NCBI RefSeq assembly: GCF_045037415.1
Contig: NZ_CP173438.1
Strand: one strand, 5' to 3'
Length of the DNA: 64,000 bases
Origin: Escherichia coli
Lineage (GTDB): Bacteria; Pseudomonadota; Gammaproteobacteria; Enterobacterales; Enterobacteriaceae
The notes below the pieces were generated by a model that saw nothing but the letters and a program-made list of their open reading frames with translations, searched no databases and had not been told where the DNA came from. A program made the position numbers and the translations under genes. Shown piece after piece: positions 52,995-55,975 of the stretch (the first letter of the stretch is position 1; every line of letters begins with the position of its first letter).

Positions 52995-54554
52995 ATGAAA
53001 GTTAAATATAAAGTTTTCAGTAATCTTTATCAGGACTCAGTTTCTCTGATGCAGATTTCCGCGCAAATCAGCAAGTTGCCCGGTATTCAACAGGCCTCGG
53101 TCGTCATGGGAACGCCCAATAATCTCGAACAATTGCGCGATGCGGGTCTGGGTAACGAAATCAACGCCAGTCCCAATGATTTAGTGATTGCAGTCATGGG
53201 TGAAGAAGATATTTGCAATGAAGCACTGATACTGGCCCAGCAACGTCTGACCAGCAAACCCGATGATGAAACGGATAGTGGCATTAAAACACCGGAAAAG
53301 GTCAGCCTGGAAATGGCACTGGAAGCCGAACCCGAAGCCAACCTGGCACTCATTTCTGTACCGGGAGACTACGCCGCCGCCGAAGCAATTAAAGCGTTAA
53401 ACCTCGGAATGAACGTGATGATGTTCAGCGATAACGTCAGTATCGTGCAGGAAAAATCCATCAAAACGCTTGCCCGAGAACGTCAGCGCATCGTAATGGG
53501 ACCTGACTGTGGAACCGCCATTGTTAACGGCATTCCGTTAGGCTTCGCTAATGTGGTGAAACGCGGAGCAATTGGTGTTATTGGCGCGTCAGGCACCGGG
53601 CTACAGGAAGTGACTTGCCGAATCGACCAGCTCGGAGCGGGTATTTCTCAGGCGTTGGGAACAGGCGGACATGATCTCAGTAAAGAGATTGGTGGAATAT
53701 CGATGCTCTTCGCTTTAGATGCGCTGGCGCAAGACGATGAAACTCGCGTAATTGTGCTGATTTCAAAACCGCCTTCACCGATCGTTGCCCGGACTATTCT
53801 GGAGCGCGCCGAGGCTTGTGGAAAACCCGTGGTGGTGAATTTCCTCGGGGCGAATCCGCATGATCTGGCACGTCCCAATATCACTGCCGCCACCACACTT
53901 GCCAGCGCCGCCGACATCGCTGTGGCGTTACTGAATGCTCAGCCACTTCCGGCTGTCGAAACCGATGTACCCTGCGACGATCTCACAATGTTACAAAACG
54001 CCTGCCAGCGCCTGCCAGCCCATCGCCAGGCGATACGCGGTGTTTTCGCCGGAGGAACCTTCTGCTACGAAGCGCAACTTATCTGCCAACAAAAGGGATT
54101 CAGCGCAGCTTCCAATACGCCAGTTGCGGGTAATCGTGCTCTGGCAAATATCTGGCAAAGCGAAGATCACACGTTGATCGATATGGGCGACGATGATTTC
54201 ACCCGTGGCAAACCGCATCCAATGATCGACCCGACTCTGCGCAATCAACGTCTGCTCAACGAACTCAACGACTCACACACTGCCGTCGTGTTATTCGACC
54301 TGGTACTTGGTTATGGCGCTTCCACGACGCCTGCCAGCGAATTACTGGACCAACTTTCACACATCGACATGAATAACGCTCCGTTGCTGATTGCGCACGT
54401 TTGCGGAACGGAAGCTGATCCGCAAATACGCAGTCAGCAGATAAGCGCACTACAAAATGCAGGGGTCATCATCGCCAGCAGCAATGCACAGGCGGCGCTA
54501 TGGGCCAGCACCGTTGCACAGACTCAGTTGCAGAAAAAGGGGCTAAACGCATGA
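52995..54554 (+). CDS. FdrA-family protein (YahF/AllF-like, CoA-ligase/succinyl-CoA-synthetase-like fold)
   Basis: 519 aa; YQDSVSLM, NVMMFSDNV, MGPDCGT, IGVIGASGTG, ISKPP and GKPHPMIDPTLRNQ motifs aligning with E. coli FdrA as I recall it. Confidence 0.8.
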   Translation: MKVKYKVFSNLYQDSVSLMQISAQISKLPGIQQASVVMGTPNNLEQLRDAGLGNEINASPNDLVIAVMGEEDICNEALILAQQRLTSKPDDETDSGIKTPEKVSLEMALEAEPEANLALISVPGDYAAAEAIKALNLGMNVMMFSDNVSIVQEKSIKTLARERQRIVMGPDCGTAIVNGIPLGFANVVKRGAIGVIGASGTGLQEVTCRIDQLGAGISQALGTGGHDLSKEIGGISMLFALDALAQDDETRVIVLISKPPSPIVARTILERAEACGKPVVVNFLGANPHDLARPNITAATTLASAADIAVALLNAQPLPAVETDVPCDDLTMLQNACQRLPAHRQAIRGVFAGGTFCYEAQLICQQKGFSAASNTPVAGNRALANIWQSEDHTLIDMGDDDFTRGKPHPMIDPTLRNQRLLNELNDSHTAVVLFDLVLGYGASTTPASELLDQLSHIDMNNAPLLIAHVCGTEADPQIRSQQISALQNAGVIIASSNAQAALWASTVAQTQLQKKGLNA

Positions 54555-55975
54555 ATACCTTATTTAATCAGCCTTTGAAGGTTGTGAACGCGGGACTACA
54601 CAGTTTTGCTGACAATATTCAACATGCCGGGGGAAGCGCAATTGCACTCAACTGGCAGCCACCAGCACAAGGCGATATTGACGCTGGATTGGATCTGGCA
54701 TCGTTGCTACGTCATCCCCTGGTAGAAAATGCCAACCAAATCGCCATGGCACGTTATCTCGAAGCACAGCCCGTGCTGGTGGATGTCATGCTTGCTAAAG
54801 AGGCCATTCCAGCAATGGCTGAACAAAAACGTATTTTGCACTCTGGCCCGCCGATTGCCTGGGAAGAGATGTGTGGTCCGGTAAAAGGGGCGATTATTGG
54901 TGCCATGCTGTACGAAGGTTGGGCCACCAGCCAGCAAGACGCTGAAAACCAGATAAACGCAGGCGAAATCGACCTTGCCCCTTGTCATCATTATCACGCG
55001 GTTGGCCCAATGGCAGGCATCATCAGCCCGTCGATGCCGTTATGGGTGGTAGAAAACAAAACCAACGGCCACCGTACTTTTAGCAATTTCAATGAAGGTC
55101 TGGGTAAGGTTCTCCGTTTTGGCGCCAATAACGATGAAGTTCTCAATCGTCTGGCCTGGATGCGCGATGAACTGACGCCGGCAATGAAAGCAGCAATCGC
55201 ACAACACGGCGAGCTGGAACTCAAGCCATTAATGGCGCAGGCGCTGCATATGGGGGATGAAGTTCATAACCGCAATGCTGCCGCTACCGGTTTGCTGATT
55301 AAGCGCCTGCTCCCGGCATTGCTGGCCTGCTCTCTTCCACAGGAACATATCCAGCGCGTCGTGGCATTTATCACCGGTAACGATCACTTCTTCCTCAATC
55401 TGTCGATGGCCGCCTGTAAAGCAATGATGGATGCCGCCGCCAATGTACCGTTCAGTTCAATGGTTACGGTGATGGCGCGTAACGGGGTGAATTTTGGTAT
55501 TCGGATTTCCGGTACTGGCGATCGCTGGTTCCAGGCTCCTGCCAATGCCGTTGAAGGTCTGTTCTTCCCCGGATTTGGCGTTGACGACGCTGCTGCTGAC
55601 CTGGGTGATAGCGCAATTACTGAAACCGCAGGTGTGGGTGGCTTCGCGATGGCGTCGTCTCCGGCGATCGTCAAATTTGTGGGAGGCACCCCTGCCGATG
55701 CCACCAATAACAGCCGTCGGATGCAAGCCATCACCCTCGGCGGTAACCCCGCATTTACACTTCCAGCCCTCAATTTTGCCCCCACCGCAGCAGGGATTGA
55801 TGCGCGTAAAGTGACCGATCGCGGCATTTTACCGGTCATCAATACGGGTATCGCCCACAAACAAGCGGGGGTCGGGCAAATTGGTGCCGGGATCACCACT
55901 GCGCCGATGGCCTGTTTTGTCGCCGCTGTACGTGCACTGGCGGAGATCGTCGCAAAGGAGAACCATCATGGTTAA
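54551..55975 (+). CDS. DUF1116 protein (YahG/YlbE/AllG-like)
   Basis: About 474 aa from MNTLFNQPLKVVNAG; start overlaps the FdrA-like stop (ATGA); family assignment by gene order and composition. Confidence 0.65.
   Translation: MNTLFNQPLKVVNAGLHSFADNIQHAGGSAIALNWQPPAQGDIDAGLDLASLLRHPLVENANQIAMARYLEAQPVLVDVMLAKEAIPAMAEQKRILHSGPPIAWEEMCGPVKGAIIGAMLYEGWATSQQDAENQINAGEIDLAPCHHYHAVGPMAGIISPSMPLWVVENKTNGHRTFSNFNEGLGKVLRFGANNDEVLNRLAWMRDELTPAMKAAIAQHGELELKPLMAQALHMGDEVHNRNAAATGLLIKRLLPALLACSLPQEHIQRVVAFITGNDHFFLNLSMAACKAMMDAAANVPFSSMVTVMARNGVNFGIRISGTGDRWFQAPANAVEGLFFPGFGVDDAAADLGDSAITETAGVGGFAMASSPAIVKFVGGTPADATNNSRRMQAITLGGNPAFTLPALNFAPTAAGIDARKVTDRGILPVINTGIAHKQAGVGQIGAGITTAPMACFVAAVRALAEIVAKENHHG

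Follow-up and report, generated by a model that had tools for sequence, protein, structure and literature searches.

Three consecutive genes in the stretch of Escherichia coli DNA analysed here (the window, 64 kb), encoding an FdrA/AllF-like protein (F), an AllG-like protein (G) and a carbamate kinase (K), are joined by overlapping stop and start codons. Do these overlaps indicate coupled translation, a fixed stoichiometry and, as an earlier note on this DNA suggested, a multi-subunit enzyme physically coupled to its kinase?

The gene cluster and its relatives

The cluster (Table 1) is flanked by ysgA/udp on one side and an RpiR-tkt block on the other, a setting from which allB/C/D/E genes are absent. 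It is accessory: of 5426 complete E. coli genomes, 1578 carry it (~29%), ExPEC and APEC strains included. The best PDB matches of the first gene product, an amidase, are TrtA (6XIX, E 4.9e-80; PMC7948467) and BiuH (6AZO/6XJM, ~1e-68), compared with 4e-29 for RutB, and its catalytic residues D26, K130 and C163 align with D24, K129 and C162 of TrtA. Because its score against the NCBIfam BiuH equivalog NF050097 (276 bits) is under the cutoff of 370, we class it only as TrtA/BiuH-like. The AllH-like gene (H) starts 5 nt past the amidase stop. F scored above the cutoff of the NCBIfam FdrA subfamily (496 against 433 bits) and matched PDB 3DMY (E 2.7e-85), G matched Pfam AllG (PF06545) with 330 bits, and K, with 366.2 bits against the arcC equivalog TIGR00746 (cutoff 358.25), is classified as a carbamate kinase (ArcC). 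Further downstream, the AH_C protein matches just the C-terminal 120 residues of allophanate hydrolase models, the permease remains under the cutoff of the NCBIfam cytosine permease model (146 against 326 bits), and the LysR-type gene, syntenic in Enterobacterales and Burkholderiales loci, encodes a probable local regulator.

Table 1. Features of the cluster, numbered from the first nucleotide of the window
Feature	Position	Strand	Remarks
Isochorismatase-family cysteine hydrolase gene, triuret/biuret hydrolase-like (first gene)	51366..52034	+	Pfam Isochorismatase, E 1.5e-48
AllH-like (DUF2877) subunit gene, H	52040..52900	+	Pfam PF11392 AllH, E 3.7e-27, 96 bits
H-F intergenic spacer	52901..52994	+	94 nt; hairpins at ~52915-52944 and 52951-52973
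FdrA/AllF-like subunit gene, F	52995..54554	+	519 aa; Pfam CoA_binding and Ligase_CoA
SD-like AAGGGG for G	54537..54542	+	in the last F codons, 8 nt before ATG
F/G stop/start overlap ATGA	54551..54554	+	4 nt; also in 38/71 orthologous loci
AllG-like (DUF1116) subunit gene, G	54551..55975	+	474 aa; long form with ~55-aa N-terminal segment
Strong SD AAGGAG for K	55955..55960	+	within the 3' end of G, 7 nt before ATG
G/K overlap ATGGTTAA	55968..55975	+	8 nt; ATG of K within the 3' end of G
Carbamate kinase gene, K	55968..56924	+	318 aa; Pfam AA_kinase; TIGR00746
Stand-alone allophanate hydrolase C-terminal domain homolog	56941..57330	+	129 aa; Pfam PF21986 AH_C, E 1.6e-41
NCS1-family (cytosine/purine/allantoin-type) permease gene	57356..58579	+	Pfam Transp_cyt_pur
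LysR-type regulator gene	58657..59562	+	Pfam HTH_1 and LysR_substrate

The amidase, AllH-like, FdrA-like, AllG-like, carbamate kinase, AH_C and permease genes would form one polycistronic unit. Internal promoters and terminators, searched for throughout the cluster including the H-F spacer, gave no signal over shuffled expectation, and synteny is conserved. The AllH-like gene stands upstream across the spacer, outside the overlapping chain, and this spacer is the sole loose junction within the HFGK block. Its second hairpin is kept in seven Enterobacterales genera, with compensatory changes at 2 of 6 pairs. A search for Rfam families left the spacer without a match and gave, in the whole cluster, two sub-threshold chance matches (Fluoride, E 0.053, antisense within G; Mu-gpT-DE, E 0.76).

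In the arginine deiminase pathway, catabolic ornithine transcarbamylase and carbamate kinase (arcB-arcC) produce carbamoyl phosphate by phosphorolysis of a ureido compound and then ATP through the co-transcribed kinase. The predicted route from carbamoyl phosphate to ATP follows the same logic here (also discussed in PMC9843812), although the carbamoyltransferases are unrelated, with the ATCase/OTCase fold there and the FdrA/AllG/AllH families here. A closer relative is E. coli allFGHK, which encodes the oxamic transcarbamylase AllF-AllG-AllH and the catabolic carbamate kinase AllK (PMC11326118, PMC9843812) and was found by experiment to be one transcript (PMC9843812). Both clusters have the same four protein families, tight polycistronic spacing and the kinase right after the last transcarbamylase gene, and identity is 42% between F and AllF and 49% between G and AllG. 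However, the order is H-F-G-K here and F-G-H-K in the all operon; there, two gaps (9 and 10 nt) precede a 4-nt overlap, as against a 94-nt gap followed by overlaps of 4 and 8 nt in the present cluster; the F|G boundary has moved by ~55 codons; and the neighbours are a TrtA/BiuH-like amidase, AH_C and an NCS1 permease in place of allantoin genes. FdrA/AllF, AllG (PF06545) and AllH (PF11392) are encoded together, as in AllFGH-type systems, but outside an allantoin (ALL) gene cluster or regulon. Since F and G are only 42-49% identical to AllF and AllG, the substrate of the predicted enzyme may differ from that of the AllFGH-type reaction (oxalurate + Pi <-> oxamate + carbamoyl phosphate).

The E. 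coli cluster yahEFG-yahI has the same order (DUF2877, FdrA-like, DUF1116, carbamate kinase-like) and the same combination of a long G and a short F, with identities of 43-46% (43% between F and YahF). Its H>F and F>G junctions overlap too, by 11 and 1 nt. However, a 421-nt interval, with yahH in it, separates yahG from yahI, and the TrtA/BiuH-like amidase is missing, the amidohydrolase YahJ being next instead. The present cluster is a third E. coli paralog of allFGHK and encodes a putative carbamoyltransferase.

Position and conservation of the junctions

As read from the sequence, the stop codon of F (TGA, 54552-54554) and the start codon of G (ATG, 54551-54553) share the tetranucleotide ATGA, and K starts at ATG 55968-55970, upstream of the G stop codon (TAA, 55973-55975). 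The NCBI PGAP/RefSeq boundaries of F, G and K in E. coli SK1144 have the same coordinates, so that the 4-nt and 8-nt overlaps described in the earlier note are borne out; the BEN2908 genome paper gives identical ORF lengths and overlaps for this region, named GR29 (PMC12928451). In ~67 orthologous loci, conservation begins at M1 both in G proteins (pattern M..LF.QPL.V.N.GL; length 467-480 aa) and in K proteins (pattern M.KPLAVVAVGGNAL), and the frames upstream of both starts are unconserved with frequent stop codons. It is therefore hardly credible that the overlaps are annotation artefacts of genes whose real starts lie elsewhere: the further in-frame starts that are available, ATG 54500 for G and TTG 55881 for K, lie upstream and would lengthen the overlaps instead of removing them, both are ruled out by the N-terminal conservation and the upstream stops, and a downstream start of G is excluded because its first 45 residues are conserved across phyla. 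Alternative starts removing the overlaps, which the earlier note had named as evidence that would count against it, were thus looked for and rejected.

Within the window, 6 of 39 adjacent same-strand CDS pairs overlap (mobA/B, yigZ/pepQ, ubiB/J, dgoK/A-like, F/G and G/K), in agreement with the ~15% reported for most prokaryote groups (PMC6728339). The overlaps at F/G and G/K are therefore ordinary and unremarkable against chance. What goes beyond chance is the steady tightness of the F>G and G>K junctions across phyla. We surveyed 80 related loci, in which F>G could be scored in 71, G>K in 65 and H>F in 33. F and G overlap in 43 of 71 loci, and the distance lies between +8 and -35 nt in 69 of them; G and K overlap in 33 of 65 and are tightly spaced (<=35 nt) in all but one (64/65). 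In contrast, H and F overlap in merely 8 of 33 loci, with a gap of more than 35 nt in 19. Tight F>G and G>K junctions are found in Enterobacterales, Burkholderiales, Vibrionaceae, Pasteurellaceae, Mycobacterium, Nitrospira and Rhodospirillales, and the pattern persists once related loci are collapsed. One apparent F>G gap of 1367 nt (locus L018) was considered as an insertion between intact genes and rejected, as F is broken there and the match covered no more than its first 56 residues.

The overlap state itself switches between lineages, with overlaps of 4, 8 or 1 nt or gaps of 2-35 nt. GC content as a driver of overlap or gap at F>G had no clear effect (means 0.62 and 0.59, respectively). 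The G>K overlap is lineage-specific; with loci clustered at 80%, just 4 of 21 lineages overlap in every member. Where E. coli has the 8-nt G/K overlap, ATGA or GTGA is found in Serratia, Edwardsiella and Citrobacter. In the E. coli junction the fourth base is G, and the stop codon of G is thereby found 4 nt further downstream. Comparison of these junctions indicates that the E. coli overlap is derived from an ancestral ATGA, for which a single A-to-G change would suffice.

The kinase and the probable F-G partnership

Overlap by itself is no sign of a complex; the mobA/mobB and dgoK/dgoA-like pairs in the window overlap as well. One might nevertheless suppose that F, G and the kinase form one metabolon channelling carbamoyl phosphate, which is labile, and that the overlaps set the stoichiometry of all three. 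The regular position of K directly after G is in line with such an arrangement, as is allFGHK, where the kinase gene and the last transcarbamylase gene share 4 nt. However, purified AllK is an active kinase by itself (PMC9843812), and AllFGH purified without AllK is active (PMC11326118). Furthermore, the G>K overlap is confined to certain lineages, yahG and yahI are far apart, and loci in which F and G are fused have no adjacent kinase. A search for G-K fusions with a chimeric query (C-terminus of G and N-terminus of K) found only singletons of 478-518 aa, none of them credible. The two with contigs examined (P0348 and P0350) had fragmented neighbour genes, consistent with frameshift-ridden assemblies, and the apparent fusions are best regarded as frameshift artefacts. 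A metabolon is thus quite improbable, the G/K junction does not support a physical complex, and the physical coupling of enzyme and kinase envisaged in the earlier note finds no support.

Natural F-G fusion proteins of 950-1095 aa occur in at least 13 separate 50%-identity clusters, and the thirteen proteins that represent these clusters match across the junction without a break. In the eight fusions submitted to Pfam, Ligase_CoA and AllG were found in a single chain in all eight, together with CoA_binding in six, and the genes beside the fusions are intact. In addition, the present G and YahG share homology at their N-termini with the last 50 aa of AllF, and AllG and 3CLQ are without this N-terminal segment. 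A segment of ~45 residues is therefore carried by F in AllF and by G in the present cluster, and the F|G boundary is offset by ~55 codons between AllF/AllG-type and YahF/YahG-type systems; the long-F proteins P0215, P0226 and P0265 have the segment arranged as in AllF. For the paralogous enzyme, elution of His-AllF brought untagged AllG with it at a similar level (PMC11326118). An AlphaFold model of concatenated F and G reached a pTM of 0.78, although a single-chain pTM is merely an indirect sign of an interface, and fusing the N-terminal segment of G to F in AlphaFold gave no gain in confidence (pLDDT 54-76, against 69-87 for G alone). It is very probable that F and G are obligate partners at a roughly equimolar ratio. 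As to the multi-subunit enzyme proposed earlier, the membership of F and G is supported by the fusions, the migrating segment and the co-purification of AllF and AllG; the overlap, from which it had been argued, does not by itself point to it.

These same observations raise the possibility that the ATGA between F and G is the scar of a fission or a staging post of a fusion, the two reading frames having once been, or now becoming, one. Full-length fusions in many lineages, the displaced boundary and the variable, linker-like C-terminal tail of F speak for it. However, it leaves the equally tight G/K junction unexplained, and we hold it only tentatively. It is compatible with the explanation preferred below and does not exclude it.

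Probable translational coupling and a possible ureide route

The spacing of the junctions resembles that of gene pairs for which termination-reinitiation has been studied. Strict coupling was found in 5 of 5 tested E. coli pairs with a 4-nt ATGA (PMC6728339), which makes the translational coupling proposed in the earlier note a reasonable inference. Like the ATGA/TGATG pairs described by Huber et al. 2019 (e.g. trpB-trpA; PMC6728339), the present genes are co-directional, with a 4-nt ATGA at F/G, an 8-nt ATGA-derived overlap at G/K and an embedded SD; however, coupling was measured there and is predicted from sequence here, and the 8-nt class was less studied there. A GGAG-type motif lies 5-10 nt upstream of the G start in the majority of orthologous loci, whatever the junction type, and SD motifs fall within the last codons of the upstream gene in most lineages. 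From the tight junctions across the 80 related loci and the ancestral ATGA, translational coupling at F/G and G/K is therefore likely.

An SD-masking structure at the junctions was not found; in 120-nt windows, the F/G and G/K junction RNAs folded no better than shuffled controls (z +0.91 and +0.99). Since G and K have good SDs of their own and the junction RNAs are unstructured beyond shuffles, independent initiation could dominate, and the output may not be 1:1. The overlaps could then be a neutral outcome of operon compaction that says nothing about stoichiometry, with the amounts of G and K depending mostly on the SD of each gene. Such an outcome would fit the variation of the junction state between lineages, the single change that accounts for the E. 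coli 8-nt overlap, and the frequency of overlapping pairs, which is much the same in the window and genome-wide. It would also fit the working allFGHK operon; as 9 nt separate F from G and 10 nt separate G from H in that operon and the overlap state switches between lineages, overlap is not required for enzyme function. However, compaction alone does not account for the near absence of F>G and G>K distances beyond ~35 nt, unlike H>F, or for the strict coupling of the tested ATGA pairs, and we consider it possible but doubtful as the whole explanation.

The explanation that we prefer, and regard as probable, is that these are ordinary operon-type overlaps in one polycistronic unit, at which re-initiation takes place, with F and G as an obligate pair and with G and K co-expressed without forming a complex. 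A ribosome ending at the F stop codon (UGA of AUGA) would most likely re-initiate on the overlapping AUG of G, and the SD within the preceding coding region would add to the initiation of each downstream gene. Re-initiation is also expected at the 8-nt G/K junction, as an E. coli-specific derivative of the ancestral AUGA. At F/G, coupling plausibly serves the stoichiometry of a near-equimolar pair, and the boundary is one at which genes have been joined or separated repeatedly. At G/K, the junction would ensure close co-expression of the enzyme making carbamoyl phosphate and the kinase consuming it.

What the putative enzyme acts on may be indicated by its neighbours. The TrtA/BiuH-like amidase adjoins the module in 50 of 54 loci, and the module occurs in Enterobacterales, Burkholderiales, Vibrionaceae, Mycobacterium and comammox Nitrospira. 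As in the triuret/biuret pathway, in which TrtA and BiuH are followed by AtzF (PMC7948467), the first gene is nearest to TrtA/BiuH and the cluster encodes a homolog of the C-terminal domain of AtzF; however, the amidase-signature domain of allophanate hydrolase is absent, and the HFG and kinase genes are in its place. We tentatively suggest that the amidase, the FdrA-like and AllG-like proteins (sometimes with the AllH-like protein) and carbamate kinase may constitute an undescribed ATP-yielding route for small ureides, e.g. biuret or triuret. In such a route, the amidase would yield allophanate (or carboxybiuret), from which FG(H) and phosphate would produce carbamoyl phosphate, replacing the amidase domain of allophanate hydrolase; the kinase would turn carbamoyl phosphate into ATP, NH3 and CO2, and the stand-alone AH_C protein would be an accessory domain retained from allophanate hydrolase.

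The overlap as such is nothing new; it is a textbook operon feature, and both the RefSeq annotation and a published description of a genome already show it. The fusions and the migrating segment mark the FdrA-like and AllG-like proteins as the obligate core of a recently discovered carbamoyltransferase family, with the AllH-like protein and the kinase as looser partners, and this can inform construct design for structural work on AllFGH. Furthermore, the near-constant linkage to the amidase, and not to allantoin genes, points to a putative substrate and perhaps to a new pathway that would yield ATP from ureides, in nitrifiers too.

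Overlapping junctions and probable translational coupling

The earlier note had reported overlaps of 4 nt (ATGA) between the FdrA/AllF-like gene (F) and the AllG-like gene (G), and of 8 nt between G and the carbamate kinase gene (K). Sequence reading and the PGAP annotation, whose boundaries are identical at both junctions, confirmed them. The F/G junction reads ...AAACGC-ATGA-ATACC, with the G start ATG sharing bases with the F stop TGA. In the G/K junction, ...CATC-ATGGTTAA-GCC, the stretch from the K start ATG to the end of the G stop TAA is 8 nt long. Identical ORF lengths and overlaps were described in 2026 for region GR29 of APEC strain BEN2908 (PMC12928451). 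The alternative in-frame starts, ATG at 54500 and TTG at 55881, both lie upstream and were rejected: in about 67 orthologous loci, the annotated Met of G and that of K mark precisely where conservation begins, and the frames ahead of them lack conservation and frequently contain stops. The overlaps therefore survive the refutation by alternative starts that had been proposed. G orthologs are 467-480 aa long.

Overlaps occur in 6 of the window's 39 adjacent CDS pairs on the same strand; mobA/mobB and a dgoK/dgoA-like pair are among them, and neither pair is known to make an obligate complex. Since this proportion equals the overlap rate of about 15% published for most prokaryote groups (PMC6728339), an overlap in a single genome means no more than chance. 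The overlaps are an ordinary, already annotated feature and cannot by themselves establish an F-G complex.

We compared 80 loci, each with a relative that shares 58-98% identity with G (Enterobacterales, Burkholderiales, Vibrionaceae, Pasteurellaceae, Mycobacterium, Nitrospira, Rhodospirillales and others), with genes mapped by homology, and classified the junctions as overlapping, otherwise tight (separated by no more than 35 nt) or loose. The F>G junction overlaps in 43 of 71 loci (38 by 4 nt; 26 otherwise tight, 2 loose) and G>K in 33 of 65 (32 by 4 nt; 31 and 1); for the AllH-like gene (H), H>F overlaps in 8/33 (6 tight, 19 loose) and amidase>H in 2/27 (22 and 3). Collapsing loci at 80% G identity left the tight pattern of F>G (25 lineages: 13 all-overlap, 8 small-gap, 1 large-gap, 3 mixed) and G>K (21 lineages: 4, 11, 1 and 5, respectively) unchanged. 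Thus, selection holds both junctions tight and their exact geometry drifts. At G/K, ATGA or GTGA is found in Serratia, Edwardsiella and Citrobacter where E. coli has ATGG; ATGG abolishes the TGA, so that the G stop is shifted 4 nt downstream, and the 8-nt overlap is a product of such drift. Separately, the FdrA-like gene of Rahnella ecdela (L018) seems broken, with only its first 56 residues in frame before a 1.4-kb stretch, and may be a pseudogene or a frameshift.

Shine-Dalgarno motifs are embedded in F (AAGGGG, 8 nt ahead of the G ATG) and in G (AAGGAG, 7 nt ahead of the K ATG), and similar motifs occur at the G and K starts in most lineages. Unusual RNA structure was not found at F/G or G/K (z +0.9 and +1.0), and thus there is no indication that a hidden ribosome-binding site is unmasked. 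Experiments on E. coli gene pairs with 4-nt overlaps showed termination-reinitiation aided by the Shine-Dalgarno sequence in 5/5 pairs (PMC6728339). By analogy, termination-reinitiation with such help would operate at these junctions as the most likely coupling mechanism, and translational coupling itself is likely.

Features of the cluster in the window and of the comparison loci
Feature	Position	Strand	Remark
Isochorismatase-family cysteine hydrolase (amidase)	51366-52034	+	First gene of cluster
AllH-like (DUF2877)	52040-52900	+	
H-F spacer	52901-52994		94 nt
First spacer hairpin	~52915-52944		
Second spacer hairpin	~52951-52973		
FdrA/AllF-like	52995-54554	+	
F/G overlap	54551-54554		
N-terminal segment of G	54551-54715		Residues 1-55
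AllG-like (DUF1116)	54551-55975	+	
Fluoride-riboswitch-like match	55007-55082	-	Sub-threshold
Antisense ORF	55384-55899	-	171 aa
G/K overlap	55968-55975		
Carbamate kinase	55968-56924	+	arcC equivalog cutoff passed
Allophanate-hydrolase C-terminal domain (AH_C)	56941-57330	+	Stand-alone 129-aa homolog without amidase domain
NCS1 permease	57356-58579	+	
LysR regulator	58657-59562	+	
AllF C-terminal segment	L002 5190-5348		
FdrA-AllG fusion P0123	L085 2123-5134		
FdrA-AllG fusion P0147	L086 6001-9087		
Urea-transporter-family gene (PF03253)	L087 7125-8024		Directly 3' of AH_C gene
Apparently broken FdrA-like gene	L018 4462-6000		Rahnella ecdela

Partners of the F and G proteins

The earlier note had read the overlaps as consistent with a multi-subunit enzyme physically coupled to the kinase. 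An F-G complex is probable, with good support from evidence other than the overlap: fusions, a shifted gene boundary, co-elution and a structural model. A search of 1.84 billion cluster representatives with a chimeric query (F C-terminus plus G N-terminus) yielded 13 proteins, 950-1095 aa in length, with a continuous match across the junction. Single-chain FdrA-AllG fusions (P0123, P0147, P0125, P0128, P0130, P0136 and P0138 among them) thus occur in no fewer than 13 separate 50%-identity clusters and come mostly from metagenomes. Pfam found Ligase_CoA and AllG in one chain in all 8 fusions analyzed, with CoA_binding in 6/8; a linker of 10-20 residues lies at the position of the split-gene junction, neighbouring genes are intact at the two fusions inspected on contigs, and AllH follows one fusion. 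Furthermore, residues 11-42 of the G protein and of YahG are homologous to the C-terminal 50 residues of E. coli AllF (BLASTP E 1e-5), and that N-terminal segment is missing from AllG and from 3CLQ, the crystallised DUF1116 protein of E. faecalis. As this segment of about 45 residues is carried by G here and in YahG but by FdrA in allFG (the long-F proteins P0215, P0226 and P0265 are arranged as in AllF), the F/G boundaries lie about 55 codons apart between the subfamilies. His-tagged AllF eluted with similar amounts of untagged AllG in the AllFGH purification (PMC11326118), and a concatenated F+G AlphaFold model (pTM 0.78, linker disordered) weakly and indirectly favours association.

Physical coupling to the kinase was not supported, and the evidence points away from it. 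AllK purified alone is an active carbamate kinase (PMC9843812), and AllFGH is active without AllK (PMC11326118). The kinase gene of the yah paralog lies 421 nt downstream of yahG, and no kinase gene was adjacent at either inspected F-G fusion locus (n=2). A search designed for G-K fusions gave only singletons of 478-518 aa; two that were inspected sit among fragmented neighbours and are thus frameshift artefacts, leaving no credible fusion. For the G/K adjacency, it is explanation enough that an enzyme making carbamoyl phosphate and one using it are tightly co-expressed.

The AllH-like protein looks like a looser partner: in this cluster a spacer of 94 nt separates its gene from F. Among the loci having F, 30 (L011, L015, L028-L040, L045, L071-L073 and others) have no such gene within about 6 kb, and these include all Mycobacterium loci and some of Caballeronia and Cupriavidus; since the characterised AllFGH needs AllH, it is either encoded elsewhere in these genomes or dispensable in this subfamily. 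The H-F spacer, the sole long one within the operon, contains two hairpins. Seven Enterobacterales genera retain the second, which shows compensatory base changes and has a conserved CTTTGCC ahead of it. No Rfam match was found for the spacer, and Burkholderiales and Nitrospira have spacers of 124-304 nt there. The spacer may serve in regulation or in mRNA processing.

The cluster and its possible pathway

The co-directional cluster is flanked by ysgA/udp and an RpiR-tkt-ptsG-like block, in E. coli chromosomal DNA that is 100% identical to strain SK1144. It is accessory in E. coli: a search with window 51000-58600 found it in 1578 of 5426 complete genomes, and plasmids account for 127 matching places; a divergent group of 120 records is 90-95% identical. 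Inside G, an antisense ORF and a Fluoride-riboswitch-like match (20 bits, below the gathering score of 34; E 0.053) both seem to have arisen by chance in GC-rich coding sequence. The locus is the third E. coli paralog beside allFGHK and yahEFGI, and its F and G share 42-49% identity with the corresponding proteins; it shares the order H-F-G-K and the long-G architecture with yah and, unlike allFGHK, stands outside the allantoin cluster. It adds a new member, as yet uncharacterised, to an enzyme family already known.

Of the 54 loci whose flanks are complete, all carry F and G, 52 carry K, 50 the amidase (93%, in several phyla; e.g. L005-L021), 33 AH_C and 32 H. The best match of the amidase is triuret hydrolase TrtA (PDB 6XIX, E 5e-80), followed by biuret hydrolases (about 1e-68), with a far poorer match to RutB; its Asp-Lys-Cys triad is conserved and its score is under the BiuH equivalog cutoff. 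The similarity and the constancy of this amidase suggest a biuret/triuret-type ureide, and not allantoin-derived oxalurate, as the compound handled by the cluster. In a metagenomic relative (L087), a urea-transporter-family gene adjoins AH_C, a neighbour consistent with a urea-like substrate. A 2025 metagenomic study found biuH adjoining allFGHK (and codB) in comammox and archaeal ammonia oxidisers and interpreted them as two separate pathways (PMC12625717); in the literature searched, biuret hydrolase and carbamate kinase were named jointly by just two papers. The link of the amidase with F, G and K, together with this literature, leads to a testable hypothesis: the amidase would yield allophanate or a relative, which FG(H) would phosphorolyse to carbamoyl phosphate, and the kinase would then use this to make ATP. 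FG(H) and the kinase would then stand in for the amidase half of allophanate hydrolase, with the C-terminal domain kept as a separate gene.
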